A model generated the notes under the pieces. The model was given only the letters and a program-made list of their open reading frames with translations, did not search any database and had not been told where the DNA came from. A stretch of 64,000 nucleotides of DNA from Clostridia bacterium (lineage in GTDB: Bacteria > Bacillota > Clostridia > TANB77 > CAG-508), in contig JAFXPH010000002.1 in NCBI GenBank assembly GCA_017528085.1, positions 343,898-407,897 of the forward strand, in the 5' to 3' direction. This document shows positions 22,051-47,151 of the stretch, in pieces. Numbering within the stretch: the stretch's first letter is position 1; each line of letters begins with the position of its first letter. The translations under genes and the position numbers were made by a program.

Positions 22051-22929
22051 TTATTCAATATTTTGAATTTGTTCTCTTATGTCTTCAACTATTGTTTTTA
22101 TATCTATAACTCTATTAGTTATATCAATACTATTAGCTTTTGAGCCAATTGTATTTGTTTCCCTGTTTATTTCTTGAACAATGAAGTCCATTTTCTTTCC
22201 AATTGGAGATTCATCACCATTAAGTAGTGCCTTTATTTGAGATATATGGCTATCTAATCTTGTAAGTTCTTCTTCAATTGATGACTTATCTGAAAAGATA
22301 ACAATCTCTTGAGCTAACCTTTGCTCATCAACTACTTTATCTTTCATAAGTTCATTAATTCTTGTCTCTAATCTTTCAATATAATCTTGAACAAGTGTAG
22401 AAGAATAATTCTTAATCTCATTTACTTTTGTTTCAACTTGGGCAATTCTAGCTTTAATATCTTGAGCTAGTTTCTCGCCTTCAGTTGATCTCATATCTAC
22501 GAAATTAACTAAAGCTTCATCTAAAGCTACTAGTAATTCTTTTGATATTAGTTCTTCTATATCTTCATCTTCTAATTTTACTATATCTGGGAATTTTGCT
22601 ATATCTATTAAATCGATTTTGTATTCAACACCAGTTTCTTCAGCTAATTTTTTTAGCCCTTCGATATAGTTTTTTGCTAAAGCATTATTGAACCTAATGT
22701 TAACACCTTGTTCACTAAAGTTTTCAAAACCAATAAATATATCAATCTTTCCTCTTGAAATAACATCGCTTACTCTTTTTCTAATAGTTTCTTCTAATAC
22801 ATTAAAATACTTTGGCATCTTAATAGATACATCAGAGTATTTATGATTAACAGATTTTATTTCTACTGTATATATTCTTCCTTCGTTTTCGAATTTGCCT
22901 CTTCCAAAGCCTGTCATACTTTTAATCAT
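22051..22929 (-). CDS. YicC/YloC-family stress-induced endoribonuclease
   Basis: YicC N-terminal and C-terminal domains (MIKSMTGFGRG...). Confidence 0.85.
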   Translation of the reverse strand: MIKSMTGFGRGKFENEGRIYTVEIKSVNHKYSDVSIKMPKYFNVLEETIRKRVSDVISRGKIDIFIGFENFSEQGVNIRFNNALAKNYIEGLKKLAEETGVEYKIDLIDIAKFPDIVKLEDEDIEELISKELLVALDEALVNFVDMRSTEGEKLAQDIKARIAQVETKVNEIKNYSSTLVQDYIERLETRINELMKDKVVDEQRLAQEIVIFSDKSSIEEELTRLDSHISQIKALLNGDESPIGKKMDFIVQEINRETNTIGSKANSIDITNRVIDIKTIVEDIREQIQNIE

Positions 22930-23593
22930 CTATATTTACCTCTTCGTCAGTTTTATTTTCTTCTTCTTTCTTTTTAGCTTCTTCTTTCTTTTTAGCTTCT
23001 TCTTTTTTCTTCTTTTTGATTTCTTTAATCATTGCTTCTTCTTTTTTTCTTTTCTCGATTAATTTGCTACTATCTTCATCATCTAAGTAGCCACCATCAT
23101 ATTCATTATCATTAAGAAGATCTTTAACATCACTTATATTTTCCATCTCATATTTCTTTGTTTTTACTAAAAACATAACAGTTGTTTTTATAACATAATA
23201 AAGTGCAAAGAAAAGTGGTAAAAGCATAACAAGCTTTCTTGCAACCACTGTTCCAAATAAATATATGTATGGAATATATGCAGTAATAATTGTTGCTGCA
23301 AGTGATTCTAGTGCTAATATACAAACTACTTTATTTGATTTTCTGTATGAATACTCAAATAAGAAAACTGTAATTACAGCACCAATCATTGAGAAGTATT
23401 TTAAGTTATCCAAAAACTCTTTATTACTACTCATAAGATAAGCATAATTAATAACAACAAAGTAAAACATAATTGTTATTGCTTTTAAGTTATTAATGAA
23501 AGATACTTCATCCAAGTAATCTTTAAGTTCTTTTGGTATTATCTTACTTTTCTTTAATTCTTCTTCAATTACTTTTTCAGATTCGTTCATCAT
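22922..23593 (-). CDS. hypothetical membrane protein with a K/E-rich C-terminus
   Basis: Four predicted TM helices. Start probably at MMNESEK, behind the RBS AAGGAGA. Confidence 0.45.
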   Translation of the reverse strand: MMNESEKVIEEELKKSKIIPKELKDYLDEVSFINNLKAITIMFYFVVINYAYLMSSNKEFLDNLKYFSMIGAVITVFLFEYSYRKSNKVVCILALESLAATIITAYIPYIYLFGTVVARKLVMLLPLFFALYYVIKTTVMFLVKTKKYEMENISDVKDLLNDNEYDGGYLDDEDSSKLIEKRKKEEAMIKEIKKKKKEEAKKKEEAKKKEEENKTDEEVNIDD

Positions 23594-23609
23594 TTGTCTC
23601 CTTAAAAAA

Positions 23610-24356
23610 CTACATTTCAAGTTCGTACATTATAATAGATGCAACTGAAAGGGCAACTGTTTCTGTTCTTAGAATTCTGTTTCCAAGTGTTACTACTTTA
23701 GCTCCGCTTTGCTTTAATGCTTCAACTTCGCTTTCTGCTAATCCTCCTTCAGGTCCAATTAGTACTGCAACCTTATATGTTTGTTTTTTAGTTTTGATTG
23801 TGACTAATTCATTTTTTATAGTGTTTTCTTTTTCATTTTCAAAACATACTATAAATAAATCATAATCACTTATAACATTTTGAACATCCTTTATATCATA
23901 TACATGTGATACTTCTGGAACAATATCTCTACCTGATTGTTTAGATGCAACTTCTGAGATTTTATTCCATCTGTCAATTTTTTTTAATTCATCTTTTTGA
24001 TCTAATTTTACTATACATCTTTCCATCTTAACTGGTATAAACTTATTTACACCAAGTTCTGTTCCTTTTTGAATAACAAGTTCCATCTTGTCTGCTTTAG
24101 GAAGTCCTTGATATATATCTAAAGTCACATTAGATTCACTTGTTGCTTCTGCTTCTTCTATAATCTTACAATTAACTTCTTCAGAAGAAACCTCTGTAAT
24201 CTCAGATATATAGTTTTTCTTTAGATCTTTATCACATACTAAGATTTTTGTTCCAACTTCTAATCTTAGTACATTTTTAATATGATTTACATCTGTACCT
24301 TTGATACAAATGTTGTCACCTTCTATTTGATTATTTAAAACAAAAAATTTTCTCAA
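23610..24356 (-). CDS. rsmE: 16S rRNA (uracil1498-N3)-methyltransferase
   Basis: PUA-like N-terminus and a SPOUT C-terminus (LIGPEGG). Confidence 0.85.
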   Translation of the reverse strand: MRKFFVLNNQIEGDNICIKGTDVNHIKNVLRLEVGTKILVCDKDLKKNYISEITEVSSEEVNCKIIEEAEATSESNVTLDIYQGLPKADKMELVIQKGTELGVNKFIPVKMERCIVKLDQKDELKKIDRWNKISEVASKQSGRDIVPEVSHVYDIKDVQNVISDYDLFIVCFENEKENTIKNELVTIKTKKQTYKVAVLIGPEGGLAESEVEALKQSGAKVVTLGNRILRTETVALSVASIIMYELEM

Positions 24357-31638: not shown

Positions 31639-34600
31639 TTAGTATTTATATTCATCATTTTTCTTATAGAAATACAGTGAAATTCCAACGAGTAATACTA
31701 TTAATCCAATTATTCCCACTTTTCTTGGACTTCCTGATTTAGGAATTGATGATTCACTAGTTCCAACAGGAACATCTAAAACTTTAGATGTATCAGTATT
31801 CTTAGGAACTAATATCGTCTTATCTTGTCCTTTTACTGGATTTAAATTATTATTACTACTTTGTTCTTCTCTTGGCACATCCATTTGTGGGTTTTCCTCT
31901 GAAGTACCAGTATTTACAGGTTCATTATTATCAATTTGTCCTACTGGTTCGTTATGTACTTCTACTACATCATCCTGATTATCAACTACATTATTTACTA
32001 CTGTATTTGTTGCATTTGTTGTATTTGTTGTATTAGTTGTATTTGTAGTATTTGTTACTTCTTCAGTCAATGTTGTATTTACTACATCATTCACTATATC
32101 AATTTGTCCTGTAGGTTTAATAATATTTCCATCTTCATCTACAAAGTTACCATCATTATCTATCAAATTTCCATCGTCATCATATAGAGCAATCTTAAAT
32201 GGTGCGTACTCTGAATATCTTTCATTTCCTGCTCTATCTACAACATAAGTTTGAGCAAAATATCTTTTATATAATTCTAAATTATCAAATCGTAAGCTAT
32301 CTTGCCATGGAGTAGAATTATTTTGTTCATCTATAATTCTGTATTTAGTAAATTTCTCATCTATACCACTTAATTCATCAATTTGATTTAGAGTAACATC
32401 TATACAGTCTTGATTATTCTCTACAATTTGAACTGATGGAGCTGTATTTGTTGGTGGTTCTTTATCTATATTATTTACAATTAAAAGAACTTCTGGGCTA
32501 TAGAAATAGCCATCTGTATATCTTGCATATACTTTGTCACCATACTCAGTTGCTACTTGTCTATCAGTGTCTTCCCACTCTCCATCATTTAATTTTGTTT
32601 GAACAAAATAGTTTTCAAGTTGAGAAGAAATAACAGTAACATCTCCATTAGTCCATCTATCTCCAACCGTTGTTGATAAAGTTGGAGGATCATCTAAGTC
32701 AAATAATGTTTCATCCGGTGTTGGATATAAATGTTGGATATTATTAATAATTATAGATATTGGTTCTCCATAATTATAACCATCTGTTAGTCTTGCATAA
32801 ACTACTCCATTATTCTCTAAAGTTTGTCTATCAATATCTACATATTTTTTACCATTAGTACTTGTTTGAATATCAAAATCACTATCTGTACTTGCAATTA
32901 CTGTTACATTTAAGAATGTAGTTACATCTAATGGTACATCTGGAGTAAGAATTATTGCTTCTTCTCCACTTGGAATAGTAAGCATAGTTACCTCTGTAAC
33001 TTCTGAATAAGCTTCATTTCCTGCTCTATCTTTTGCATATGTTTGTATGTAATAAGTTTCACCTTGTTTTAATCTATCAAATACTGGATTTGATTGCCAT
33101 GATCCTGAATTTCCATCCACATCAGTTAATCTATATAATTTTGTTTCAATACCGCTTTCGTTATCTACTTGTTTTATACCAGAATAGATATATCTTGTAG
33201 TTACTTTACTTGCTACTGGAGCAGTATTTGTAGGTGGAACTTTATCAATTTTATTTACCATAACAGATGTTGGTTCACCATATTCATATCCATCTGTTAA
33301 TCTTGCATAAACTTGAATATTGTCGTCTACTTCAACTTCTGTAACATTAGTATAGTTTGTTCCATCTATACTCATTTGAATATCGTAAATATTCTCTTTT
33401 ACTTTTTTAGCAGTAACTATCTTATTTTGATTTGTCCAATTTGGATTATTTACTGAAAGTGATAAAGCTTCTGATGCTTTTGGAATTGGTTCTGACTTAT
33501 CTAGTAAGAACTCATTTCTTTCACTTACTTGTTCATTTCCTGCATTATCAGTTGCCTTTGTCCAAATATAATATGTTGAATGGTTTATTAATCCTTCAAG
33601 TGATATTGTATCTACTGATTCCATCCATTCAACAGTTGATGGTAATGTATCATCTGTTGAGATGTAGAAATATTGTTTATTTATGCCACTTCCTCCAGAT
33701 TCATCTTTTTGATTACATTTTAATGTTGCCTTTTTAGATTCCATCTGTGTTACTGTTGGCATATCAGTTGAAGGTTTTTGCTTATCAATCTTTGTAACAG
33801 TAATATTTGTTGAAGTTCCAAATGCTCCATTATATGAATATCTTGCATATACTTTTCCATTTTCAGGAACACTTATTTGAGTTCTATCAGTATATGATGT
33901 TCCATCAAGACTCATTTGAATTACATATTTTGGATCTTCACCTGAAGCTGCTGTTACTACTTTATTTCTATTTGTCCAGTCAGGATTATCAACTGTAAGT
34001 GTTATGCTTGTTCCTGCAGGTATTGGATCTGGAGTAGGTGTACTAGTTTTAAAGTTATTTGAAGCACTTACTTGTTCATTTCCTGCATTATCTATTACTC
34101 TTGTCCATACATAATATGTTTTTGATTCAGTAAGTCCTGTAAATTCAAGAGTTGTTCCCGTTCCTTTTACCCAAGATGGATTACTTGGAAGACTACTTCC
34201 TTCTTGCATATAGAAATAGTATTCTTTTATTCCACTTCCACCTGAATTATCTGTTTGATTAGCCTTCACAGTTGCCTTATTTGTTGTAATATTGCTTACA
34301 GTTGGTTTATCTGTTGAAGGTTTTACTTTATCTATTTTAGTAACATCAATATATGTTGATGTTCCATATTCTCCGTTATATGCAAGCCTTGCATATACTC
34401 TTGTATTTTGGTCTACTGCTAAAGTTGTTCTATTTGAATAATTTGTTCCGTCTGAACTCATTTGAACAGTATATTTAGAATCTGCAGATGACACAGCAGT
34501 TACTGTTTTATTAGAATTTGTCCAATTTGGATTATCTACACTTAAAGTAATTGCATCGCTTCCGCTTGGAATTGGATTTGATGGCTCAGCAGATGTTTTA

Positions 34601-37600
34601 ACTGTAGCTCTACTTGATACTGTTTCATTTCCTGCTTTATCTTTTACTTTTGTCCAGAAATAATAATTTGTATTTGATTCTAATGAGCTAAATGTATATG
34701 TTTTATTTGTGTTTGTTACCCAACTTGGATTACTTGGTATTGTATTTGATTTTGATGCAAAGAAACTATATGTACCATTTAATCCGGAAGCAGCATCTGT
34801 TTGTTCACACCTAATAGTAACTGAATTATATGTGCTTTCTGTTATTGTAGGTGCACTATTTGTTGGTGCTACTTTATCTATTTTAGTAACATCAATAGAT
34901 GTTGGTGATCCATATTCTCCGTTATATGCAAGTCTTGCATATACTGTTGAATTTTGTGCTACACTTAATGTTGTTCTATTTGAATAGTTTGTTCCATCTG
35001 AACTCATTTGAACAGTATATTTAGAATCTGCAGATGAAACTGCTGTTACTGTTTTATTAGAATTTGTCCAATTTGGATTATCTACACTTAAAGTAATTGC
35101 ATCGCTTCCACTTGGAATTGGATTTGATGGCTCAGCAGATGTTTTAACAAAAGCTCTACTTGATACTGTTTCATTTCCTGCTTTATCTTTTACTTTTGTC
35201 CAGAAATAATAATTTGTATTTGATTCTAATGAGCTAAATGTATATGTTTTATTTGAGTTTGTTACCCAACTTGGATTACTTGGAATAGAGTTTGACTTTG
35301 ATGCATAAAAACTATATGGACTATCTAATCCAGAAGCAGCATCTGTTTGCTCACATCTAATAGTAACTGAATTATATGTACTAGATGTTATTGTAGGTGC
35401 ATTATTTGTTGGTGCAACCCTATCAAAACAACTTACTGTGTATGAATATGTACCTTCATTATCATAAGTATCAGTTGCGCTAAATCTATATGTTCCATTA
35501 TCACTTACATTATATGAATAAACACTTCCTGAGTGAGTTGTAACCTCCGTTTTTGTTCCTCCTGGTGGTGTTACATATACTTTTTTGACTCCTGAAGAAT
35601 CTGTTACATTAACTTTAAGTGTTCTAGATGAAGCATTAGTATATGATGTATCAAAAGAATTTAAAGTAATCGTTGGTCCTGTTGTATCTGAAGGTGTTGT
35701 TTCTAACACTAGTTCTGAAGAAGGTCCTACATTTCCAAGTGTATCAATGCATCTAAAGTATATTTTACTTTGTCCAGTCTTATTGATGTTTAAATATAGA
35801 TTTCCATTTCTTGGAAGAGAACCTGATCTTATACTTACATCACTTCCAGAACTTGTTATATCTTTAAAACTTGAATTATTATAAGAGTATTCTATAGTTC
35901 CTACCTGTGATTTTTCATCAGAAATATGAATATTTACTGTATAAAGACTACTACTGTTAGTTAAACTATCATAAGTAGGTGCTATTGGTCCTTCATTATC
36001 TATTCTTGAAACTGTATAGTTTAAACCAGCTGTATATCCACTTTTGTTTTTTGCTTCAAAAGTATATTTACCATTTTCTTTAGCTATATATGTGTAAACA
36101 TTACTACTATTAATAGTAAGATTTGTTGTATTACCATCTGGATCTGTAACTTTAAAATACTCTAATCCTCTAGAATCATGTGGAATTACATTTAATGTGA
36201 TTGTTAATGTTCTAGCAGTTCCAGAACTTGGACTAGAAGAAAGACTTATTTCTGGAGTGCCTACTGTTCCTGGATCAGGATCATCTCCACCTCCACCAGA
36301 AAGGCCATTTACTGTAAAGCCAGCTCCTCTTGAATTTCCAGCATTATCTTCTGCATAGATATAATATGTTCCATTTTCTGTAACATAATAAATGTAATTT
36401 CCTTGCTCATCTGGTACCATATTGTCTTGAATAATATTTGTTTTATCATTTTTTGCTAAATAAACTCTTCTTATTCCTGAATCTGCATCATATGCAGTTC
36501 CTATACCTTGTTTTGGTGTAGTAGCATCTGCAGCAGTTGGTATAATATTTGTAACTACTGGTGGTGTTGTGTCTTGTTTTTCCCATACAGCTGTTAAGAC
36601 TACTGGACCTGTTACACCACTTCCTCTTGGAGAAAGTGATGGCTCAGGACCATTAGCACCATTCCATCCAAGGAATCTATATCCACTTCTAGTTATTGAT
36701 CCAATAGTAAATGTATTATTTGTATTATATGTTTGATTTAATGAAGTGTACTTACCATAAGTTAAATTATAAATAATATTATATGTTGAAGGTAGTGTCC
36801 AATATTTATATAACATATCTACGGCAACGGCACGAGATATTTGACTAGTAGGTCCATACGTTGAACCCGTATCTGTAATAATACCTTTTGAATAACACCA
36901 ACAAATTGCTTTATAAAACCAATCTGAGCTTGTAACATCAGTATATGGTAATGATATTGATGAAACTTGAGGTGAATCTGCTAATCTATATATCATTGTT
37001 GCATATTCAGCTTTTGTGCATGCTCTTTCTGGTTCAAATGTTCCAGAAGGATTCCCTTCTACTATATGTTTTTTTTCTAAAGCCCATTTAATGGCATTTG
37101 CATAGTAGCTAGTTCTAGGTACATCGCTAAAAGCATATAAATTATTTTCATAATCTACATTATCTCGTCCTCTAAATAAGACTCCATCTAGATTATATGA
37201 TCTATATATAATCTCTACAGCATCTCCTCTTTTTATTGAATTATTTGGAGAAAATGTATTTGATGTTGTTCCATTTACTATTCCATTTTTTAATGCCCAA
37301 TCAACAGCATTATAATATTGATTTGACATTGGCACATCAGTAAATGTTCTCATGACATTCATATTTATAAAATAAGATCTAACTGTATTCTCTCCAAAAG
37401 ATAATGGACATTTATTATTTTTACTAGAATTAGTTGAAGTAGAAGTACAATTTTGATATACACAATCGTAAGCCCTAAATCCTCCAAAATCAAACATATT
37501 GTTTTCAGCTTTACAGTTATTCACAACAAATCTATCACTTGTTTCTGTAGCTACATAATCTTCTGGAGAATAGTATCCTTGATGTTCAAAAAAGAACCCA

Positions 37601-38448
37601 TATTTATAATTATCATTAGCTTCACAATTATCAATATATATAGATTCTTCATTTACATAACCTGTTCCTATTCCAAATCCTGACGCTCCTTTAGCATTTT
37701 CTCCTCCTCCGTTAGTAGCTTTATCTGCTTCTCTTCCACAACCAATCGCTTTACAGTTTGTAATTGTGCATTCAATAGGACAATCCATACCAAATCCTGT
37801 TGCAATTGTATCTTTAACAATAACATTATCCCAATCGCAGTATTTAAAAAGATTAATCATAAATCCTTTTCCCGCAGAATTATACACATCACAACTAGCC
37901 TCTTTTCCATCAATTACGAAAGAAGAAAAATCTGCATTTACTAAATATTTATATTTTCCACCTTCCATTATTCTTTCACGAACACTATTATAATAGAATA
38001 AGTCTAAACCTTGCTCGACTTTTCCATAAGGTTTTAGAATGGTATTTTCACCTTTTCCAATAATTTTTACATTATTTTTTGGAGCAAGACAATATCCAAA
38101 TGGTTCATATTTTCCAGTTTTAGCATTATAAGCATAATCAGCCATATTAAAGTAAAATGTTCCTGCAGGTAGATATATTTCTCCTCCGCCACTATTACTT
38201 ACTGTATCAATTAGTCCTTGTAAATATACTCTATTAGCTTTCATTATAGCTTCAGTTTTTCCAGTCTTAAGTCCAGTTGCAGAAACTGTTAAGCCATTGA
38301 AATCACTGAATTCTCCGGCATAATAATGTTTAGTTTTATGACCAACAAATAAACAGCACAAAGTAGCTATTATAATCATAATAGCTACCCAACCTCTAAT
38401 ATTTAGTTTCTTTTTTCTCTTCACATATGTTTGATCTGTATAAATCAT
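31639..38448 (-). CDS. giant cell-wall-anchored surface protein (2269 aa)
   Basis: Domain order: signal anchor; right-handed beta-helix (PbH1 repeats, NCKA.. type); three SLH-like domains; a Listeria-Bacteroides-type repeat; at least six Ig/FN3-like modules of about 180 aa; a Thr/Asn-rich stalk; then IPKSG plus a hydrophobic stretch plus KK, which is a sortase-type signal. Confidence 0.8.
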   Translation of the reverse strand: MIYTDQTYVKRKKKLNIRGWVAIMIIIATLCCLFVGHKTKHYYAGEFSDFNGLTVSATGLKTGKTEAIMKANRVYLQGLIDTVSNSGGGEIYLPAGTFYFNMADYAYNAKTGKYEPFGYCLAPKNNVKIIGKGENTILKPYGKVEQGLDLFYYNSVRERIMEGGKYKYLVNADFSSFVIDGKEASCDVYNSAGKGFMINLFKYCDWDNVIVKDTIATGFGMDCPIECTITNCKAIGCGREADKATNGGGENAKGASGFGIGTGYVNEESIYIDNCEANDNYKYGFFFEHQGYYSPEDYVATETSDRFVVNNCKAENNMFDFGGFRAYDCVYQNCTSTSTNSSKNNKCPLSFGENTVRSYFINMNVMRTFTDVPMSNQYYNAVDWALKNGIVNGTTSNTFSPNNSIKRGDAVEIIYRSYNLDGVLFRGRDNVDYENNLYAFSDVPRTSYYANAIKWALEKKHIVEGNPSGTFEPERACTKAEYATMIYRLADSPQVSSISLPYTDVTSSDWFYKAICWCYSKGIITDTGSTYGPTSQISRAVAVDMLYKYWTLPSTYNIIYNLTYGKYTSLNQTYNTNNTFTIGSITRSGYRFLGWNGANGPEPSLSPRGSGVTGPVVLTAVWEKQDTTPPVVTNIIPTAADATTPKQGIGTAYDADSGIRRVYLAKNDKTNIIQDNMVPDEQGNYIYYVTENGTYYIYAEDNAGNSRGAGFTVNGLSGGGGDDPDPGTVGTPEISLSSSPSSGTARTLTITLNVIPHDSRGLEYFKVTDPDGNTTNLTINSSNVYTYIAKENGKYTFEAKNKSGYTAGLNYTVSRIDNEGPIAPTYDSLTNSSSLYTVNIHISDEKSQVGTIEYSYNNSSFKDITSSGSDVSIRSGSLPRNGNLYLNINKTGQSKIYFRCIDTLGNVGPSSELVLETTPSDTTGPTITLNSFDTSYTNASSRTLKVNVTDSSGVKKVYVTPPGGTKTEVTTHSGSVYSYNVSDNGTYRFSATDTYDNEGTYSYTVSCFDRVAPTNNAPTITSSTYNSVTIRCEQTDAASGLDSPYSFYASKSNSIPSNPSWVTNSNKTYTFSSLESNTNYYFWTKVKDKAGNETVSSRAFVKTSAEPSNPIPSGSDAITLSVDNPNWTNSNKTVTAVSSADSKYTVQMSSDGTNYSNRTTLSVAQNSTVYARLAYNGEYGSPTSIDVTKIDKVAPTNSAPTITESTYNSVTIRCEQTDAASGLNGTYSFFASKSNTIPSNPSWVTNTNKTYTFSSLESNTNYYFWTKVKDKAGNETVSSRATVKTSAEPSNPIPSGSDAITLSVDNPNWTNSNKTVTAVSSADSKYTVQMSSDGTNYSNRTTLAVDQNTRVYARLAYNGEYGTSTYIDVTKIDKVKPSTDKPTVSNITTNKATVKANQTDNSGGSGIKEYYFYMQEGSSLPSNPSWVKGTGTTLEFTGLTESKTYYVWTRVIDNAGNEQVSASNNFKTSTPTPDPIPAGTSITLTVDNPDWTNRNKVVTAASGEDPKYVIQMSLDGTSYTDRTQISVPENGKVYARYSYNGAFGTSTNITVTKIDKQKPSTDMPTVTQMESKKATLKCNQKDESGGSGINKQYFYISTDDTLPSTVEWMESVDTISLEGLINHSTYYIWTKATDNAGNEQVSERNEFLLDKSEPIPKASEALSLSVNNPNWTNQNKIVTAKKVKENIYDIQMSIDGTNYTNVTEVEVDDNIQVYARLTDGYEYGEPTSVMVNKIDKVPPTNTAPVASKVTTRYIYSGIKQVDNESGIETKLYRLTDVDGNSGSWQSNPVFDRLKQGETYYIQTYAKDRAGNEAYSEVTEVTMLTIPSGEEAIILTPDVPLDVTTFLNVTVIASTDSDFDIQTSTNGKKYVDIDRQTLENNGVVYARLTDGYNYGEPISIIINNIQHLYPTPDETLFDLDDPPTLSTTVGDRWTNGDVTVISSQLENYFVQTKLNDGEWEDTDRQVATEYGDKVYARYTDGYFYSPEVLLIVNNIDKEPPTNTAPSVQIVENNQDCIDVTLNQIDELSGIDEKFTKYRIIDEQNNSTPWQDSLRFDNLELYKRYFAQTYVVDRAGNERYSEYAPFKIALYDDDGNLIDNDGNFVDEDGNIIKPTGQIDIVNDVVNTTLTEEVTNTTNTTNTTNTTNATNTVVNNVVDNQDDVVEVHNEPVGQIDNNEPVNTGTSEENPQMDVPREEQSSNNNLNPVKGQDKTILVPKNTDTSKVLDVPVGTSESSIPKSGSPRKVGIIGLIVLLVGISLYFYKKNDEYKY
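34325..35416. repeat. two near-identical tandem copies of a 546-bp (182-aa) unit inside the giant gene
   Basis: Direct comparison of 34325-34870 with 34871-35416 shows only scattered mismatches. Older, more diverged copies flank the pair. Confidence 0.8.
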
Positions 38449-38513: not shown

Positions 38514-41500
38514 TTAAACATCTTCTAAATCTTTATTTCTCTTTACAAAGTATAGAGAAATTCCGATTAACAATAATGCTACACCAAATATTCCAACATT
38601 TGAATCTTTACCAGTTTTTGGCATATTTGAATTTGCTTCTGTGTTATTAATTATATTAGTTATATTTGTTATTGATGTATTTGTTGTAGTGTTTGTTGTT
38701 GTATTAGTTTTCTTTACGGCTCCTACTGCTGAATTTGATTTAGGAACTAACACAACTACATTGTTGTTGTTATTCTCTTCAATTACTTGTGTATCATTAT
38801 TTTGTTGTTCTGTTTGAGTTGTCTCTTCTGTTTTCTTAACTTCACCAACCTCATCAAGATTTGGTGCTGGTTCAGGTTCAATTACTGGCTCAGGTGTTGG
38901 TTCTTGTTGTTCATTATTATTGTTATTTGGTTCTGGATCTTGATTTACTGGATCTTCAGTTAATTCTGAACCAGAGTTTGGATTTACCTGATTATTAGTT
39001 TCATTTGGATCAATATCCTCTGAAATGCTTGTACCAATTTCTGAACCATTGTTGTCTGTATTACCATTTCCCCCAACTGGTTCATTATTATCTATTCTTA
39101 CAAAGTTTCCATTTTCATCTTGTCTTAGATAATGTCCATCTTTATCTATTATATTTCCATCATCGTCATAAAGGATTACCATGAATGAACCTTCCTCAGA
39201 AATTTGTTCATTTCCTACTAAGTCTATTGCAAGTGTTTGTCCTTTATATACTTTGTATGATTCTATATTTCTAAATATATTATCTGTTTGCCACTCACCG
39301 ATATTTCCATCTGGATCTATTATTCTATATTTAATGTGATCTGTATCTTGTGGTATACCAGATTGATCATCTGTTTGTTGGAATGTAAACATTACTATTG
39401 ATAAATCTTCACCATTTGCTCTTTCAACAATTGAGAATCCAGGTATTTCTGCGTTTGGTGGAGTCTTATCAATATTTGTAACTTGAAATTTTGCTTCCTC
39501 ACTATATGAAGTTCCATCATAATATCTTGCATATACTATGTCATCATTACTTTCAACTGTTTGGAATGCTGTATATTCCCAATCACCATCATTTAATTTT
39601 GTTTGAACCATATAATCTTTTACTCTGTCAACTCTTATTCTAACTGTGTCTCTTGTCCATGTTTCAGGATTAATTGTACAAGTTGGAACTTCTTCTAAAG
39701 TAAACATATCTGGGTCTGGTGTTGGAAGTGGAGCTTGTATATTAGTTACATCTATATAAATTGGTTCTGAATAGTTAACACCATCTGTTAATCTTCCATA
39801 AACCCTTCCATTTGTTTCCATTACTACTGAAGAAACATTTAAGTATTTTTCTCCATTTCTGCTCATTTGGATTGTTAAGTCTGGATCTGAACTTTTAGCA
39901 ACTACTGTTACATTTGTAAATGCCATCTCAGTATTTGGTGTTGATGGTGTAAGTGTTAATACATCTTCTGTATTTGGCAATTTAGCAGTTGTTGCAGAAG
40001 TAAGTTCTGATACCATTTCATTTCCTGCATTATCAACTACTCTAGTTTGTACCTTATATGTTGTATCTTGGTTAAGTTTATTAAATGTTCCATAGCTTTG
40101 CCATGCACCATAGTTTCCATCTGGATCAACTAATCTATATTTTGTTTCTCCTAGATTAATACCACTTAATGTGTCTGTTTGCTTTGATGTAGCAATTATT
40201 GATGCAGATGTTACTTTTGTTATAGCAGGTGCAGTATTTGTAGGTGCAACTTTATCAATATGGTGGCATTCCATTGTTAAAGGCTCACTATAGTTTGTAC
40301 CATCATATAAGCAAGCTTTAATTGTACAAATCTCAGTTGCAACTGCTTGAGTTCTTGGTGAGTAATTAGCACCACCATCTGTACTCATAACTATTGTATA
40401 AGGTGTACCTTCTACTGTTTTAAGAATTTTTGCTGTAACTGTAATATCTTGGTTTGTCCAAACTGATGTTGGTTTATCAGGAATTAATGTTATATATGTA
40501 CTTGTTTTATCTAATGCTTTAGTTGTTACTTTTGTTGTTTTTGATTCTTGTGTATTTCCAGCATTATCTGTTACTTTAGTTTGAATATAATATTCTCCTG
40601 ATGGAATACCTGTAAATGTATCTGATGTTTGATAGTCTTTAAAGACTGTAGTTTCATTACTTAATACTCTATATCTAATAGTAGATTCTTTTATCTTTGA
40701 AGCAGCATCTGTTTGTTTACATGTTACTTTAAATGAAGAAGTTGTAATATCACTAGCTGCTGGTGCTGCATCTGTTGGATTTACTTTATCAATGTTCTTG
40801 ATTTCAATAGTTTCATATCTAGATGAAGCATTTGTTCCATCTGATAATTTTACATATACCCTCTTATTCTCACTAACAGTAATTGTTGTTCTTTGTGTAA
40901 AGTCTGCTGCAGTAGTAGTTTCGCTTAGTAATACTCTCATTCCTGTAGCTGATGTAGAAACTGTTACTTTAACTGTTCCATTTGTCCATGTATCTGCATT
41001 AGGTGTCAAAGTATAAGTTACATTTCCACCTTCACCTATAACTGGATCTGGAACATTTACATAGTCATACTCTAATACTTGAGATTCTGTAGAATAACCA
41101 TAACGATCTGTTGCTTTTGTTTGAACATAGTACTTTTGTCCAGATGTCATTTTTAATTCATTACTTGATTGATATGTACCACTCGTTCCTGCAGCATTTG
41201 TTAATCTATATTGAGTTTTTGATTCATCAACACCACCCATAGCATCTACTTGATTACACTTAAATGTAGCTCCTGTAGCTGTTTTAGCTATAAAAGATGG
41301 TTTAGCATTTGATGGACCAGTAACATCTATGTTTGATACACTATAGTTTCCTACTAAAGTACCCTCTTTCTCAGTTCCGCTTTCTGTGTACTTATATTTA
41401 ACAGTTATTTTATAAGATCCATTTTCTGTTACATCTTTAGTATGATCCTTATTTGTAGATGATGTGTAAACAACATCAGTACCTCTAGCAATCTCAACAC

Positions 41501-41789
41501 TTGTAGTTGTAACTCCTGTCGAACGTGTCACTTTAAGTGTTACTTTACTTAAATATCTTTCTAGTTCGCTACCTGTATGAAGAACTTCATTTGCAGATAT
41601 TGTAATATATGTATTTTTGTTAATTTCTTTATCTGCATCAAAGATGTTTAGCTCTCCTGGTAAAGTACTTACAACTTTATCTTTTGGAATATTAACAATT
41701 ACTATTGCAATTATTAAGGCAACAATTAAAATACTAAATAACAAAACTTTTTTTGTATTTAGTCTGCCTTTTTCTCCGAACCTACTCAT
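38514..41789 (-). CDS. cell-wall-anchored surface protein (1091 aa), paralog of the giant protein
   Basis: Signal anchor and Ig/FN3-like modules, with a C-terminal region clearly homologous to the C-terminal roughly 350 aa of the 2269-aa protein. It ends MPKTG plus a hydrophobic stretch plus KRNK. Confidence 0.8.
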   Translation of the reverse strand: MSRFGEKGRLNTKKVLLFSILIVALIIAIVIVNIPKDKVVSTLPGELNIFDADKEINKNTYITISANEVLHTGSELERYLSKVTLKVTRSTGVTTTSVEIARGTDVVYTSSTNKDHTKDVTENGSYKITVKYKYTESGTEKEGTLVGNYSVSNIDVTGPSNAKPSFIAKTATGATFKCNQVDAMGGVDESKTQYRLTNAAGTSGTYQSSNELKMTSGQKYYVQTKATDRYGYSTESQVLEYDYVNVPDPVIGEGGNVTYTLTPNADTWTNGTVKVTVSTSATGMRVLLSETTTAADFTQRTTITVSENKRVYVKLSDGTNASSRYETIEIKNIDKVNPTDAAPAASDITTSSFKVTCKQTDAASKIKESTIRYRVLSNETTVFKDYQTSDTFTGIPSGEYYIQTKVTDNAGNTQESKTTKVTTKALDKTSTYITLIPDKPTSVWTNQDITVTAKILKTVEGTPYTIVMSTDGGANYSPRTQAVATEICTIKACLYDGTNYSEPLTMECHHIDKVAPTNTAPAITKVTSASIIATSKQTDTLSGINLGETKYRLVDPDGNYGAWQSYGTFNKLNQDTTYKVQTRVVDNAGNEMVSELTSATTAKLPNTEDVLTLTPSTPNTEMAFTNVTVVAKSSDPDLTIQMSRNGEKYLNVSSVVMETNGRVYGRLTDGVNYSEPIYIDVTNIQAPLPTPDPDMFTLEEVPTCTINPETWTRDTVRIRVDRVKDYMVQTKLNDGDWEYTAFQTVESNDDIVYARYYDGTSYSEEAKFQVTNIDKTPPNAEIPGFSIVERANGEDLSIVMFTFQQTDDQSGIPQDTDHIKYRIIDPDGNIGEWQTDNIFRNIESYKVYKGQTLAIDLVGNEQISEEGSFMVILYDDDGNIIDKDGHYLRQDENGNFVRIDNNEPVGGNGNTDNNGSEIGTSISEDIDPNETNNQVNPNSGSELTEDPVNQDPEPNNNNNEQQEPTPEPVIEPEPAPNLDEVGEVKKTEETTQTEQQNNDTQVIEENNNNNVVVLVPKSNSAVGAVKKTNTTTNTTTNTSITNITNIINNTEANSNMPKTGKDSNVGIFGVALLLIGISLYFVKRNKDLEDV

Positions 41790-41993: not shown

Positions 41994-44900
41994 CTAGATT
42001 TTTGTGATGTCTACCGGATTTAAATCTTCTTCTTTTGTTTCTAAATCTATAGCTTTATAAAGTGCATTTACTGTGTCTAATGCTGTAAAGCATGGAATTT
42101 TGCATTCAACTGCAATTCTTCTAATTTTAAATCCATCTCTATTTGCATTCTTACCTTTTGTTGGAGTGTTTATTACAAAATCAATCTTTCCTGATTGAAT
42201 TAAGTCTGTAATATCTTCACTACCATCTGATAATTTTTCAAGTGCTGTAGATTCTATTCCATTTTTCTTTAAGAATGTTGATGTTCCTGATGTAGCATAT
42301 ATATCAAATCCTTTTTCTTTAAACTTTTTAGCAATAGGAAGGACTTCTAATTTATCTTTGTCTCTTACTGATATAAATATATTACCTTGATGTTTTACAT
42401 TTATACCACTTGCAATAAATGCTTTTAGTATTGCATTTTCGTATTTAACATCTACTCCAAGTACTTCTCCTGTTGATTTCATTTCAGGTCCAAGTGAGGT
42501 ATCTGCATTTTTGATTTTCTCAAATGAGAATACTGGCATCTTTACACAAACATAATTTGATTTTCTATATAAGTCTATTCCATATCCCATATTTCTTAAT
42601 TTTTCACCAAACATTACTCTTGTTGCAATTTCTATTATTGGAAGATTTGTAACTTTACTAATATATGGAACAGTTCTACTTGATCTTGGATTAACCTCAA
42701 TAATGTATACTGTATCATCGCTTATGATAAATTGAATATTAAACATTCCAATTATATCTAATTCTTTTGCAATTTTTCTTGAATAATCAATTATTATCTC
42801 TTCATATTTCTTATCAATATTTTGTGAAGGATACACTGATATACTATCTCCAGAATGAATTCCTGCTCTTTCTAAGTGTTCCATAATACCTGGTATTAAG
42901 ATGTTTTCTCCATCTGAAATTGCATCTACTTCAACTTCTTTTCCCATTACATATTTATCAACTAGTATTGGATGTTCTTGAACTATTTGATTTATTTCAT
43001 TAACAAATTCTGTTATTTCTTTATCATCATGAGCAATTGCCATACCTTGACCACCAAGTACATATGATGGTCTTACTAATACTGGATAACCTAGTTTATT
43101 AGCTATCTCTTTTGCCTCATTTACTGTAAATATGGTTCCACCTTTTGGTCTTGTTATATTACATTTTGTAAGTACTTCATCAAACTCTTTTCTATCTTCA
43201 GATCTATCCATATTTTCTTCTGAAGTACCAAATATTCTAACACCCAAATCTGATATTGCTTTAGTTAATTTAATTGCAGTTTGCCCACCGAATTGAACGA
43301 TAACTCCTTCTGGTTTTTCTCTATCGATAATTGCTTCTACATCTTCTGGTGTTAGAGGTTCAAAGTAAAGTTTATCTGATATATCAAAATCTGTACTTAC
43401 AGTTTCTGGATTGTTGTTTACAATTATTGTTTCGTATCCTAATTTCTTTAGTGCCCATATTCCATGAACTGAGCAATAATCAAATTCTATTCCTTGTCCA
43501 ATTCTAATTGGTCCAGATCCTAAAACCATAACTTTCTTTTTGTATGAATTTTTTACTTCATCACCTTCATCATAAGATGAATAATAGTAAGGTGTCTCTG
43601 CTTCGAATTCAGCACTACATGTATCAACCATTTTAAAATATGGAATAATTCCATTTTGTTTTCTAAACTTTTTGATTTCTTCTTCTGGTTTTTTAGTATA
43701 CTTTGCAATTGTCTTATCTGTAAATCCAAGCATCTTTGCTCTTCTTACTAAATCTGCGTTAAACTGACTTGATTCAAGTTCTCTTTGCATTTTAATTAAG
43801 TTATAAACCATACCAATAAAATGTCTGTCTATTGTTGTTATCTCATGAATTCTATCCACAGGTATTTCTTTTCTTATAGCCTCTGCAATAACGAAAAATC
43901 TTTCGTTATCCACAACTTTTAACTTTTCCTCAAGTTCTTCTTTTTCATAGTTTTTATATTTTTCTAAGAACAATTCTTCAACATTTTCTTCTATTGATCT
44001 TAGAGTTTTCATAAATGCTGATTCTAGGTTTGAACCAATTCCCATTGATTCTCCGGTTGCTTTCATTTGTGTTCCAAGTGTTCTATTTGCTGTTAAAAAT
44101 TTCTTAAATGGCCACTTTGGAATTTTTACTACAACATAATCTAGTGTTGGTTCAAAACAAGCGTAAGTTTTCTTAGTAACTTCATTTTGGATTTCATCTA
44201 AGTCATATCCAAGTGCTATCTTAGTTGCAATCTTAGCTATTGGATAACCAGTAGCTTTTGATGCTAATGCTGAAGAACGACTTACTCTTGGGTTAACCTC
44301 AATTACAGCATACTCAAAACTATTTGGATTTAATGCAAATTGAACATTACATCCACCTTCTATTTTAAGTGCATTTATAATCTTTATTGCTGATGTTCTT
44401 AGCATTTGATATTCTTTATTAGATAATGTTTGTGATGGTGCAACAACTATACTATCACCAGTATGAACTCCAACTGGATCTAAATTTTCCATGTTACATA
44501 TTACTATGCAGTTTCCACTTTTATCACGCATTACTTCATATTCTATTTCTTTCCATCCAGAAATACATTTTTCAATTAGTACTTGATGAACTCTTGAGTA
44601 TCTTAGACCGCTACTTGCAATTTCATCTAACTCTCTTTTATTATATGCAATTCCTCCACCAGTTCCTCCTAAAGTATATGCTGGTCTTACTATTACTGGA
44701 TATCCTATTTCTTCTGCAAATACTAATGCTGCAGGAACATTTTCTACTACCTTACTTTTTACACAAGGCTCATTTATGGATTCCATTGTATCTTTAAATG
44801 ATTGTCTATCCTCTGCATTTTTTATTCCTTCTGTTCCTGTTCCTAAAAGTCTTACATTATTCTTTTTTAAGAATCCACATTCTGCAAGTTCCATTGCTAA

Positions 44901-45191
44901 GTTAAGTCCTGTTTGACCGCCTAGATTAGGAAGAATTGAATCCGGTCTTTCTTTTATTATTATTTTCTTTAAAGTTTTAACTGTAAGAGGTTCAATATAA
45001 ATTTTATCTGCCATCATTTTGTCTGTCATAATTGTTGCTGGATTTGAATTTACTAAAACTACTTCTACGCCTTCTTTTTTCAGTTCATGGCAAGCTTGTG
45101 TTCCTGCATAATCAAACTCTGCAGCTTGTCCAATTATTATTGGACCGGAACCAATTACTAATACTTTTTTAATATTCTTGTTTCTTGGCAT
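41994..45191 (-). CDS. carB: carbamoyl-phosphate synthase large subunit
   Basis: Duplicated ATP-grasp halves and an MGS-like C-terminal domain; 1065 aa. Confidence 0.95.
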   Translation of the reverse strand: MPRNKNIKKVLVIGSGPIIIGQAAEFDYAGTQACHELKKEGVEVVLVNSNPATIMTDKMMADKIYIEPLTVKTLKKIIIKERPDSILPNLGGQTGLNLAMELAECGFLKKNNVRLLGTGTEGIKNAEDRQSFKDTMESINEPCVKSKVVENVPAALVFAEEIGYPVIVRPAYTLGGTGGGIAYNKRELDEIASSGLRYSRVHQVLIEKCISGWKEIEYEVMRDKSGNCIVICNMENLDPVGVHTGDSIVVAPSQTLSNKEYQMLRTSAIKIINALKIEGGCNVQFALNPNSFEYAVIEVNPRVSRSSALASKATGYPIAKIATKIALGYDLDEIQNEVTKKTYACFEPTLDYVVVKIPKWPFKKFLTANRTLGTQMKATGESMGIGSNLESAFMKTLRSIEENVEELFLEKYKNYEKEELEEKLKVVDNERFFVIAEAIRKEIPVDRIHEITTIDRHFIGMVYNLIKMQRELESSQFNADLVRRAKMLGFTDKTIAKYTKKPEEEIKKFRKQNGIIPYFKMVDTCSAEFEAETPYYYSSYDEGDEVKNSYKKKVMVLGSGPIRIGQGIEFDYCSVHGIWALKKLGYETIIVNNNPETVSTDFDISDKLYFEPLTPEDVEAIIDREKPEGVIVQFGGQTAIKLTKAISDLGVRIFGTSEENMDRSEDRKEFDEVLTKCNITRPKGGTIFTVNEAKEIANKLGYPVLVRPSYVLGGQGMAIAHDDKEITEFVNEINQIVQEHPILVDKYVMGKEVEVDAISDGENILIPGIMEHLERAGIHSGDSISVYPSQNIDKKYEEIIIDYSRKIAKELDIIGMFNIQFIISDDTVYIIEVNPRSSRTVPYISKVTNLPIIEIATRVMFGEKLRNMGYGIDLYRKSNYVCVKMPVFSFEKIKNADTSLGPEMKSTGEVLGVDVKYENAILKAFIASGINVKHQGNIFISVRDKDKLEVLPIAKKFKEKGFDIYATSGTSTFLKKNGIESTALEKLSDGSEDITDLIQSGKIDFVINTPTKGKNANRDGFKIRRIAVECKIPCFTALDTVNALYKAIDLETKEEDLNPVDITKI

Positions 45192-45192
45192 T

Positions 45193-46269
45193 TTATATTT
45201 CCCCCTTTACTTTTCTTGCAAATGTATCAAATAAAAATGATGTATCTTCAGGTCCTGGGCATGACTCAGGATGGAACTGTACTGTAGTTATGTTTTTGTT
45301 TTTATAGTTTATTCCTTCTACTGTTCCATCATTTAAATTTATATAAGATACTTCAGCTATATTTTTATTTATTGAACTTTCTAAAACATAGTATCCGTGA
45401 TTTTGACTTGTTATATATACTCTATCAGTATTTAAATCTTTTACTGGGTGATTTACACCTCTATGTCCATATTTCAATTTACTTGTTTTAAAACCATTTG
45501 CAAGAGCCATAAGTTGATGCCCTAAACATATTCCAAATATTGGTTTATTTGTTCTTCTATATAGTTCTTTTAAAGTTTCTATTTCTTCTTTACATTCTTC
45601 TGGATCACCTGGTCCATTAGATAGCATTATTCCATCTGGATTATCTTTTAATATTTCTTCAGCTTTAGTTCTTGCAGGATATATCATTACTCCAAGTTTT
45701 CTAGATAAAAGACTATTTACTATGTTATGTTTAAAACCATAGTCTATTAACGCTACTTTCTTTTCATATTGTTTTCCATATTCTTGTTTTGCCTTTACTG
45801 TTACTTTATCAACTACACCTTCTACTTTATATTCTTTTATCTTTTCAAGAAGTGCTTCCTTATTATTAATTGCATTAACTAAAGCTCCTCTTAAAGTACC
45901 ACTTTCTCGAAGCATCCTTGTCAGCTTTCTTGTATTTACTCCTGTAAGTCCTGGTGTATTGTTGTTTCTTAAGAATTTGTCTATTGTGTATTTAGATCTA
46001 AAGTTGCTTTCAAAGTTTGCCATATTGTGGATAAATACTGCGCTTGCCCATATCTTATCTGACTCAAAATCTTCTGGTATTACTCCATAGTTACCAATTA
46101 ATGGATAAGTCATTACTATTCCTTGTCCTGCATAAGATGGGTCTGTGAATGTTTCTATGTATCCAGCCATACCAGTATTAAAGACAACCTCACAAAAGAC
46201 TTCTGCTTGATAGCCTATTCTTTCTCCCTCAAATACCTCACCATTTTCTAGTACTAAAAAACCTTTCAT
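45193..46269 (-). CDS. carA: carbamoyl-phosphate synthase small subunit (glutamine amidotransferase)
   Basis: GATase class I catalytic Cys (GICLGHQ) with a CPSase small-chain N-terminus. Confidence 0.95.
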   Translation of the reverse strand: MKGFLVLENGEVFEGERIGYQAEVFCEVVFNTGMAGYIETFTDPSYAGQGIVMTYPLIGNYGVIPEDFESDKIWASAVFIHNMANFESNFRSKYTIDKFLRNNNTPGLTGVNTRKLTRMLRESGTLRGALVNAINNKEALLEKIKEYKVEGVVDKVTVKAKQEYGKQYEKKVALIDYGFKHNIVNSLLSRKLGVMIYPARTKAEEILKDNPDGIMLSNGPGDPEECKEEIETLKELYRRTNKPIFGICLGHQLMALANGFKTSKLKYGHRGVNHPVKDLNTDRVYITSQNHGYYVLESSINKNIAEVSYINLNDGTVEGINYKNKNITTVQFHPESCPGPEDTSFLFDTFARKVKGEI

Positions 46270-46308
46270 GATACTCCTTTCACATAAAAAAAATACTAAA
46301 TAAAATAA

Positions 46309-46422
46309 ATATTATTTAGTATTTCTATTAAAAAAATTATTATCGAATAAAGAATAAATAGCCTTGTTTCTTGTCAATTTGCTTAAACTATTGATTTTGA
46401 ATACACTATTTACTGCTTTCAT
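46309..46422 (-). CDS. possible 37-codon small ORF/leader peptide upstream of carA
   Basis: Strong RBS AAAAGGAGAGAG followed by ATG. It reads MKAVNSVFKINSLSKLTRNKAIYSLFDNNFFNRNTK. It is below the ORF-track length cutoff. Confidence 0.25.
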
Positions 46423-46519
46423 TTCTCTCTCCTTTTTACATTATAGAGATTTTATATTAATCAAATTTAAAAATCAAGCATTTTTTTTATTTGTAATTAA
46501 ATAGTCATAAAAGAAAAAT

Positions 46520-47071
46520 TTAAAGGTCATATTTTACTACTTCACAATTAGAAAGTTTTAAAAATGATAAATTTTCTTCCATAGCTTTTGAATCATATCC
46601 TTCAAGATAAGCTCTAGCTGCAATACTATTTCCAGCATGAAATACAACTAAAACATCTTTATCTTGATATTTTTCTTTAATTTCTTCAAAGAAGTTCTTT
46701 GTTCTTTCATACAAATCATCAAATTCTTCCATGCCGTCTATACCAGATTTAACGCCGAAATTAAAAGCACATGATTTTATGTCTTTAAGAAGTGTTTTAT
46801 TTTTTCCTTCTAATGAACCATAGCATCTTTCTATTATTCTATCATCTGTTATTAATTCTAAATTTCTGCCCTCTGTAATTATTTTTGCTGTTTCTACTGC
46901 TCTTTTTAGAGGAGATGCAATTACTACATCAATGTTTGTTTCTTTTAAATCATCTCTTGTTTTTTCTGCTTGTTTTTTTCCTTCTTCATTTAAATCAGTA
47001 TCTGTTATTCCTTGAATCTTACCTAATACATTCCAATCTGTAAGTCCATGTCTTGTTAAATAAACCCTCAT
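46520..47071 (-). CDS. histidine phosphatase (phosphoglycerate mutase-like) family protein
   Basis: RHG motif (YLTRHGLTDWN) and a downstream His. Confidence 0.75.
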   Translation of the reverse strand: MRVYLTRHGLTDWNVLGKIQGITDTDLNEEGKKQAEKTRDDLKETNIDVVIASPLKRAVETAKIITEGRNLELITDDRIIERCYGSLEGKNKTLLKDIKSCAFNFGVKSGIDGMEEFDDLYERTKNFFEEIKEKYQDKDVLVVFHAGNSIAARAYLEGYDSKAMEENLSFLKLSNCEVVKYDL

Positions 47072-47151
47072 ATATACCTCCTAATAAATTTTACACTATT
47101 TTTAGGCCCAAAAAAAAGAGTTATTTTAAAAATAACTCTTTTTTATTTAAA

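Follow-up and report, generated by a model that had tools for sequence, protein, structure and literature searches.

The gene and its neighbourhood

The window, as the whole 64,000-nucleotide stretch of DNA analysed here is called, comes from an uncultured Clostridia commensal of ruminant guts and carries a large gene for a cell-surface protein with an internal repeat array. The protein is composed of a signal anchor, a beta-helix head, three SLH (S-layer homology) domains, an FN3-like stalk and a sortase-like C-terminal anchor. The gene, its main parts outside the stalk and its upstream neighbour are as follows.

31639-38448, minus strand: cell-surface protein gene with the repeat array, 2269 aa (open reading frame and translation; one gene call in public assemblies)
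37354-38271, minus strand: N-terminal right-handed beta-helix head, aa about 60-365 (AF2 model, pLDDT 92, pTM 0.92)
36769-37353, minus strand: three SLH domains (Pfam PF00395, E=9e-34, 115.6 bits, 3 stretches)
31642-31746, minus strand: C-terminal sorting-signal-like tail (IPKSG, hydrophobic helix, KKNDEYKY)
31641-31608: terminator-like hairpin at the 3' end of the 2269-aa gene
38514-41789, minus strand: upstream LPXTG surface protein of 1091 aa, a paralogue whose units are distantly related

A hydrophobic anchor is present at the N-terminus of the 2269-aa protein, and its three tandem PF00395 domains place it among the SLH-domain cell-wall-associated proteins. Foldseek matches of the modelled head are the AlgE4/AlgE6 mannuronan epimerases, alginate epimerase/lyase and phage tailspikes, and the Pfam Beta_helix match is weak; as predicted, the head resembles a beta-helix of the polysaccharide-enzyme type. 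The initial annotation called the gene a giant adhesin, a name that is unproven for a protein with such a head. The IPKSG tail and the MPKTG tail encoded by the upstream gene are paralogous. The TIGR01167 (LPXTG) profile finds no match in the 2269-aa protein at E<=0.01, the motif there being IPKSG, and the upstream neighbour passes it (18.5 vs a cut-off of 15.9). Sortase anchoring of the 2269-aa protein is thus putative, suggested by the form of its tail. The 2269-aa and 1091-aa genes are probably one operon; a promoter and terminator scan pointed to a likely two-gene operon and nothing further. The surrounding genes are housekeeping genes: carAB, an AMP-binding enzyme, thyA and folA.

The tandem pair and the older units

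The stalk is read on the minus strand through the following units.

34879-35424, minus strand: unit 1 of the pair, two-domain FN3-like module, aa 1009-1190
34333-34878, minus strand: unit 2 of the pair, aa 1191-1372, 43/546 nt and 17/182 aa apart from unit 1
33787-34332, minus strand: unit 3, older copy, aa 1373-1554, matching units 1 and 2 at 50% of residues and 61-62% of nucleotides
33247-33786, minus strand: unit 4, older copy, aa 1555-1734
32737-33246, minus strand: unit 5, older copy, aa 1735-1904
32467-32736, minus strand: half unit 3' of unit 5
32188-32466, minus strand: lone FN3-like domain after the half unit

The pair forms a direct tandem repeat with a period of 546 nt (34325-34870 and 34871-35416; 41 mismatches, 0 indels, 92.5% identity) and lies in frame. 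It was measured by shift-identity and repeat finding in place of TRF, which missed it, its longest period being 500. Taken in codon phase the units are about 92% identical in nucleotides and share 165/182 residues (90.7%), and since off-register 30-nt windows are only ~13-50% identical, the in-register match is far beyond chance. The two adjacent 182-codon units that had been reported are accordingly real, with the coordinates, frame and lack of indels as described; the description of them as near-identical and differing at only a few positions is too strong, as 41-43 of 546 nt (7.5-8%) differ. That the neighbouring copies are far more diverged also holds: units 3-5 match units 1 and 2 at 54-62% of nucleotides and 35-50% of residues. 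The Ig-like character of the array is borne out as well. An AF2 model of one unit (pLDDT 89, pTM 0.60) consists of two beta-sandwiches, and its top Foldseek matches are tandem FN3 pairs (E=5e-7 to 1e-5). By Pfam score or by fold the stalk is assigned to FN3 (PF00041), for which the whole protein scores 25.3 bits vs a gathering cut-off of 25 and a single unit 15.5 bits.

Copies of the array in other assemblies

All of the compared sequences are short-read metagenome assemblies, in which four gene lineages, A to D, were distinguished. The two-copy structure is reproduced in independent assemblies: in L001 (lineage A, MEGAHIT), in L003 and L004 (lineage A, scaffold-named contigs of the Xie et al. 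data set, probably IDBA-UD) and in L010 (lineage B, with a NODE-style contig name, probably SPAdes, and 90% aa identity over the whole protein). Every lineage-A contig that spans the array has two units, i.e. four with the identical protein together with L003 and L004. Lineage D (L016, L018) has at least two. The counts are therefore two in lineage A (at least 6 contigs), two in lineage B, at least two in lineage D, and one in the lineage-C contig L013, where collapse in assembly is possible.

The single unit of L013 is a hybrid, with a unit-1-like 5' end and, from nt 346 on, identity to unit 2 of L014; its 3' part has 1-2 differences per segment from unit 2 of the window. L014 belongs to the same strain, with a single other SNP over 4.8 kb, and has a different cassette at nt 314-333. 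The PNGED/PTGEE cassette of L014 was considered as proof of a second unit and rejected, since unit 2 of lineage D occurs with either cassette and the cassettes are thus not tied to unit position there.

Wider searches added little. A homology search with the whole protein found only relatives of its head/SLH/Flg_new part (<=43% identity, ~24% coverage) and no orthologue with another unit count. The exact 2269-aa protein is absent from a clustered protein collection, and a scan of GTDB species representatives with it gave no match; a CarB scan placed the nearest such representative at 76% identity, without a related adhesin beside carB. A JGI metagenome scan returned only a 43-residue C-terminal fragment.

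Age of the duplication

Units 1 and 2 are 92% identical and any other pair of units at most 62%, a difference that would suit a very recent duplication, as the initial annotation proposed, followed by uniform divergence and no recombination. The comparison between lineages speaks against this. Lineage B has both copies and lineage D no fewer than two; moreover, 14 copy-specific sites are common to the window and L010 in the orthologous arrangement (W1=L1, W2=L2, where W and L are the units of the window and of L010), and the crossed pattern occurs 0 times. At the 5' edge of the unit (nt 1-138) dS between the copies is 0.43, about four times the 0.10-0.11 found between lineages. Together with a divergence along the unit that is strongly non-uniform (p=3e-5), this makes a recent origin scarcely credible. 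Judged by these sequence comparisons, the duplication is older than the divergence of the gene lineages present in public metagenomes.

A homogenised centre and probable gene conversion

The differences between units 1 and 2 are unevenly spread, and the segments concerned are the following.

34966-35286, minus strand: homogenised middle part of unit 1, nt 139-459 of the unit
34420-34740, minus strand: homogenised middle part of unit 2, nt 139-459 of the unit
34606-34709: longest exact run common to units 1 and 2, 104 nt, equal to 35152-35255
34603-34605 and 34564 (within 34564-34605), minus strand: four-site patch in which unit 2 of L003 and L004 has the unit-1 state

The centre has 12/321 differences (3.7%) and the edges 31/225 (13.8%; Fisher p=3e-5), although for third-position differences alone the contrast between centre and edges reaches p=0.07. 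A run of 104 identical nt, given 43 differences, has a permutation P of 0.003. dS is 0.13 in the centre vs 0.43 at the 5' edge, and dN is 0.013 in the centre vs 0.096 and 0.147 in the edges.

Comparison across the lineages suggests gene conversion between units 1 and 2. All four concerted sites between the window and L010 (W1=W2, L1=L2), which depend on L010, fall in nt 139-396, and all 14 orthologous sites fall outside it (P=0.005). The two L010 copies are identical over nt 136-459 (324 nt) yet are 10-11 sites off the window copies. In nt 346-459 unit 1 of the window differs from lineage-D unit 2 at 6 sites and from lineage-D unit 1 at 13-15. Across 14-23 kb, the four sites of the patch are all that separates L003 and L004 from the window.

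Much stronger purifying selection on the centre than on the edges of an old duplicate, with no conversion, would account for the very low central dN, and the centre does span the core strands of both beta-sandwiches. Selection could indeed contribute part of the low central divergence. As the whole explanation it is quite improbable, since synonymous divergence is low in the centre too and the same centre is 13-20% apart between lineages (27-41 differences in nt 139-345 between the window and lineage C/D units) and hence not intrinsically invariant; further arguments against it are the concerted sites and the fact that unit 1 groups with unit 2.

The favoured reading, to which we give a probability of roughly 0.7, is an old in-frame duplication followed by repeated gene conversion of the central ~320 nt, producing a mosaic with 92% overall identity. 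The aligned units show the mosaic divergence, the cross-lineage patterns and a duplication older than the lineage splits; RecA-type intragenic recombination is what we infer as their source. The series of events would begin with the in-frame tandem duplication of a 182-residue stalk module (FN3-like + FN3-like) before the lineages split. The edges of the units would have retained old copy-specific differences while the central ~320 nt was repeatedly overwritten by non-reciprocal homologous recombination between the copies, with conversion tracts that would vary from lineage to lineage and perhaps also among near-identical strains. Recombination of this kind might now and then delete or insert a whole unit, and the stalk would then change in length. 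The earlier proposal of ongoing recombination-driven expansion and contraction is in this way upheld in one part: recombination is supported as gene conversion homogenising the centre of the unit, and expansion or contraction is not, as it would come from one assembly (L013) that is indistinguishable from collapse. Unit 4 was also considered as a possible donor of a micro-conversion at the 3' end of unit 1, to which a 10-nt match would point.

Behaviour of the repeat in short-read assembly

The warning of an assembly-collapse hazard proved apt. Three Logan k=31 contigs break at a shared 30-mer, ending exactly there, 30 nt past the last copy-specific base. The end of the Logan contig L012, at unit nt 55, is not accounted for by the repeat of L010 itself.

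Since the sequence was assembled from short metagenomic reads of mixed strains, the duplication might be an artefact of assembly, e.g. two strain variants of one unit joined in tandem. The chance of this is negligible. Independent samples and assemblies recover the same unit 1-unit 2 junction and all of the 41-43 differences, the k=31 contigs stop at the point expected of a true in-genome repeat, and the reading frame is intact. In addition, the longest shared run of 104 nt is below k=141, so that every 141-mer is unique.

Finer details are more exposed. Bubble merging or read correction in a two-copy repeat can itself homogenise the copies, and the 324-nt tract of L010, the four-site patch of L003 and L004 and the single unit of L013 could be partly or wholly assembler artefacts. 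The study from which the scaffold-named assemblies come used IDBA-UD with maxk 124 and --min_contig 500. The locus marks a place where short-read assembly of this genome is unreliable: contigs break, the copies may have been made uniform and a unit may have dropped out, and gene length and sequence in MAG catalogues are consequently not to be trusted there.

Unit number and stalk length

An actively length-variable stalk of the Periscope type, in which unequal crossing-over adds or removes units and so changes the projection of the head, is a further interpretation. The Periscope screen (PMC8201768) takes tandem protein repeats of >50 residues with >=80% identity, and the 182-residue pair at 90.7% passes it, being the only such pair in the protein. 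The single hybrid unit of L013, together with the different cassette in L014 of the same strain, would also be in keeping with length variation. However, two units are present in every array-spanning lineage-A contig and in L010 of lineage B. L013 is a scaffold-named assembly, probably made by IDBA-UD with --min_contig 500, and the skipped loop of a collapsed two-copy repeat, being <500 nt, would be discarded at that setting, so that collapse mimics a real deletion. Furthermore, only two copies are similar, the other units (54-62%) being too diverged for efficient homologous recombination, and the three SLH domains adjoin the head, a poor fit to a simple projecting stalk. Active length variation is accordingly judged unlikely, although less so than the alternatives considered above; if it were true, the protein would be a commensal, enzyme-headed addition to the Periscope class.

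A bolder proposal would have the array work as a switch of both length and sequence, with L013 and L014 as truly one- and two-unit strains and the L003/L004 patches as fresh micro-conversions. This is likewise doubtful; were it correct, surface variation of the Periscope type would extend to a non-pathogenic gut commensal with a polysaccharide-active beta-helix head. The locus does not belong with programmed antigenic-variation systems, which switch the expressed sequence by donor cassettes, invertases or hypermutable tracts: neither an inverted-repeat switch nor a cassette was detected, and the repeats present are direct ones inside the gene. The suggestion of antigenic variation in the initial annotation is unsupported; the organism is an uncultured ruminant-gut commensal.

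Relation to known repeat proteins

The system can be set beside Periscope-type repeats and those of fibrillar adhesins and is of a kind already known; the process is an ordinary one for bacterial surface proteins, and the duplication opens no new question. What the locus offers is a clean small case of partial concerted evolution in the surface-protein stalk of an uncultured gut anaerobe.

Periscope Proteins include the G5-E repeats of SasG/Aap, Rib/alpha C and the SHIRT repeats of Sgo_0707 (Whelan et al. 2021, PMC8201768; review PMC9704523). Like these, the 2269-aa protein would be a Gram-positive surface protein whose functional head lies at the N-terminus and whose C-terminal tail resembles a wall anchor, and its stalk of predicted beta-sandwich domains may form an elongated rod; it shares with them repeats of >50 residues at >=80% identity and a DNA similarity of repeats that permits intragenic homologous recombination. 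Unlike them, it has only 2 of ~6 units that are similar, at 92% vs 95-100%, its SLH domains lie beside the head, and its host is an uncultured gut commensal and not a pathogen; what is documented here is homogenisation by gene conversion, not a change of length between strains.

Streptococcal M protein and the alpha C protein vary in size through recombination among repeats inside their genes (Hollingshead 1987 and Madoff 1991, as cited in PMC9704523). So far as that review relates them, the proposed process is alike, namely homologous recombination between in-frame tandem repeats of a surface gene; those genes have many near-identical short repeats and experimental deletions under immune pressure, whereas here there are two long units, 8% diverged, and no switching has been seen.

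Fibrillar adhesins with FN3/Ig-like stalks (Monzon et al. 2021, PMC8286594; PMC9210967) have the same plan of a head, a long stalk of repeated beta-sandwich domains and an anchor, and their stalks too evolve by domain duplication. The head of the present protein differs from theirs in resembling polysaccharide epimerases, lyases and tailspike glycosidases, and not a known adhesive domain.

Structure of the duplicated pair and its gene

The gene for a 2269-aa surface protein contains a direct tandem repeat with a period of 546 nt (34325-34870 vs 34871-35416; gapless, 41 mismatches, 92.5% identity) that TRF leaves unreported because its longest period is 500. A shift-by-546 scan in 30-nt windows confines 80-100% identity to 34320-34890, with 13-50% elsewhere. 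Aligned in reading-frame phase the two copies, units 1 and 2, differ at 43 nucleotides and 17 residues; the initial annotation's "only a few positions" is thus overstated, although the far greater divergence it saw in the neighbouring units is real, units 3-5 having 54-62% nucleotide and 35-50% amino acid identity to units 1 and 2. The pair is a real feature, somewhat mis-described.

Features of the surface-protein gene and its neighbour (window coordinates; domains from N- to C-terminus)
31639-38448, minus strand: surface-protein ORF, 2269 codons, containing the repeat
34879-35424, minus strand: unit 1 in frame phase, aa 1009-1190
34333-34878, minus strand: unit 2 in frame phase, aa 1191-1372
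N-terminal-most part: hydrophobic anchor
aa about 46-365: beta-helix head (AF2 pLDDT 92, pTM 0.92)
C-terminal of the head: three SLH domains (E=9e-34)
C-terminal of the SLH domains: Flg_new-type repeat
Between the Flg_new-type repeat and the array: about four unclassified Ig-like domains
Unit array: five units of 170-182 residues, a half unit and a lone FN3-like domain
Between array and tail: low-complexity region
C-terminal tail: IPKSG, hydrophobic helix, KKNDEYKY
38514-41789: upstream gene, paralogous surface protein with MPKTG tail

A single unit is modelled as two beta-sandwiches (pLDDT 89) best matched by tandem FN3-FN3 structures. The best fold matches of the head are the AlgE4/AlgE6 mannuronan epimerases, alginate epimerase/lyase, phage tailspike glycosidases and GH87; the name "adhesin" given earlier was a guess, since the modelled head looks instead like a polysaccharide-active enzyme. 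The MPKTG tail of the upstream paralogue passes the LPXTG model; the IPKSG tail of the 2269-aa protein does not.

About 30 proteins of the SLH, Flg_new or dockerin kind share the head (37354-38313) at 39-52% identity, with invariant TGFGxD, GASGFGIGTG and FFFEHQ motifs, and a Pfam search of it returned zero families above threshold. The head may represent an uncharacterised carbohydrate-active family; its predicted fold is like those of alginate epimerases, lyases and tailspikes.

Source and lineages of the locus

The flanking proteins (GenBank MBR3511684, MBR3511686) are annotated "MAG: Clostridia bacterium", and the sample names on several contigs come from Xie et al. 2021, a MAG study of the ruminant gastrointestinal tract in which assembly was by MEGAHIT and by IDBA-UD (mink 90, maxk 124, min_contig 500) (PMC8199421). 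The source organism is in a sparsely represented Clostridia lineage: no close species representative was found in GTDB, and CarB of the nearest representative, a mouse-gut MAG of uncultured Clostridia, is only 76% identical (window 41994-49103). Using neighbouring genes as handles, four lineages of the locus were recovered from public contigs; all sequences compared are short-read metagenome assemblies, the assembler of each being inferred from contig names alone (k141_, MEGAHIT; scaffold_, IDBA-UD; NODE_, SPAdes).

Lineages of the locus
Lineage A: window, L001, L003-L007
Lineage B: L010-L012; 90% identity to the window's protein
Lineage C: L013, L014, L008, L009; lacking aa 62-622 (head, SLH and Flg_new module)
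Lineage D: L016-L018; TetR gene inserted downstream

The segment absent from lineage C corresponds to window 36583-38265, and the signal anchor is fused straight to the Ig-like stalk; a head-less stalk is therefore possible, as three independent assemblies have it (L013 2398-6978; L008 7981-8650; L009 5234-5864). The TetR-family regulator gene of lineage D (L016 3638-4207; L017 3321-3890; L018 3586-4155) lies between the surface-protein gene and an AMP-binding enzyme gene, and is absent from the window. In L011 (10502-11123), near the contig end, the surface-protein frame diverges and stops after about 177 codons; this end is probably chimeric or erroneous.

Age of the duplication

The lineage B contig L010 has both units in the same place as the window, and in two lineage D contigs (L016, L018) the 3' part of unit 1 is followed by unit 2 in full. 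Between window and L010, 14 sites are orthologous (each unit matching its counterpart), 4 concerted (the two units alike within each contig) and none crossed. The dS between the window's copies is 0.43 over unit nt 1-138, 0.13 over 139-459 and 0.11 over 460-546, as against ~0.10 between lineages A and B, so that the duplication has several times the age of the A/B split. The "very recent" event first proposed is accordingly rejected.

Homogenization of the copies

Differences between the window's copies are clustered: the central 321 nt has 12 and the remaining 225 nt at the flanks has 31 (Fisher p=3e-5), and the longest identical run is 104 nt (P=0.003 given 43 randomly placed differences). 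Purifying selection alone accounts neither for the low synonymous divergence nor for the 13-20% by which this centre diverges between lineages. At nt 139-345 the window's units are 27-41 sites from lineage C and D units and only 6 from each other, and at nt 346-459 window unit 1 differs at 6 sites from lineage D unit 2 and at 13-15 from lineage D unit 1; on these distances unit 1 of lineages A and B has unit-2-type sequence at its centre.

All 4 concerted sites fall within nt 139-396 and all 14 orthologous sites outside it (P=0.005), a placement that hinges on L010, whose copies are identical across nt 136-459 (324 nt), each 10-11 sites from its window counterpart. Over 14-23 kb, four bases (34603-34605, 34564) are all that separates the lineage A contigs L003 and L004 from the window; each of the four is in the unit-1 state in unit 2 of these contigs, thereby extending the identical run to 211 nt. 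Since bubble merging or read correction by short-read assemblers can homogenize a two-copy repeat, both the L010 identity and this four-base patch could be assembly artefacts. The clustered differences and the lineage C and D distances are robust, because the underlying differences survived assembly and recur across assemblies. A mosaic distribution over units and lineages is seen for the short cassettes PSGSD, PTGEE and PNGED (nt 314-333). The ongoing recombination proposed for the pair is supported, in the form of gene conversion.

Assembly and copy number

The two-copy structure of the window is safe, because the longest shared run is shorter than the 141-mers of a MEGAHIT assembly, which gives an identical gene. 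The suspected assembly hazard is borne out: in three Logan contigs, L005-L007, drawn from different runs, the sequence stops at unit-1 nt 199, 30 nt beyond the last copy-specific base (nt 169). The gene contains their terminal 30-mer twice and their terminal 31-mer once, which is the mark of a branch in a k=31 graph. Others (L014, L016-L020, L012) also start or stop within the pair, which is chiefly of use as an assembly warning.

Two units are present in all array-spanning lineage A contigs (four with identical protein, plus L003 and L004) and in L010; lineage C contig L013 has one. That unit starts out like unit 1, and from nt 346 on it is identical to L014 unit 2, with 1-2 differences per segment from window unit 2. 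A unit-1-like start and unit-2-like remainder is the structure expected of unequal crossover, and also of an assembler skipping the loop of a collapsed repeat, a loop that min_contig 500 would discard. L014, which represents this strain in a different sample (1 other SNP over 4.8 kb), starts at unit nt 307 and has seven differences from L013 within nt 314-333; this is indecisive on copy number because lineage D unit 2 carries either cassette. Of the initial reading, then, recombination stands and recency falls, while expansion and contraction is unproven.

Relation to known systems

The closest known concept is the Periscope Proteins, surface proteins with lengthy tandem repeats of high similarity that recombine and alter stalk length (PMC8201768, PMC9704523). 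The pair passes that screen's threshold (>50 residues, >=80% identity). However, just two units qualify, length variation is undemonstrated, the LPXTG model is unmatched and SLH domains adjoin the head, and the protein is therefore filed as a surface-protein stalk with a partly homogenized domain duplication, an event of ordinary kind; the pair works like known repeat-recombination systems, but is a candidate rather than a demonstrated length-variable member. Among the window's repeats and in the neighbourhood no elements of a programmed antigenic-variation system were found.

Short repeats

Small-scale repeat-number variation between lineages is real at a 9-nt repeat encoding (NTT)n near the C-terminus of the surface protein (32002-32056), since L010 and L013 have one unit fewer. 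An 18-nt coding tandem repeat (GCTAAAAAGAAAGAAGAA) at 22958-23011, in a gene at 22922-23620 on the minus strand, has one copy more in the window than in the otherwise matching L001, reflecting either a minor in-frame polymorphism in length or a difference between the assemblies.
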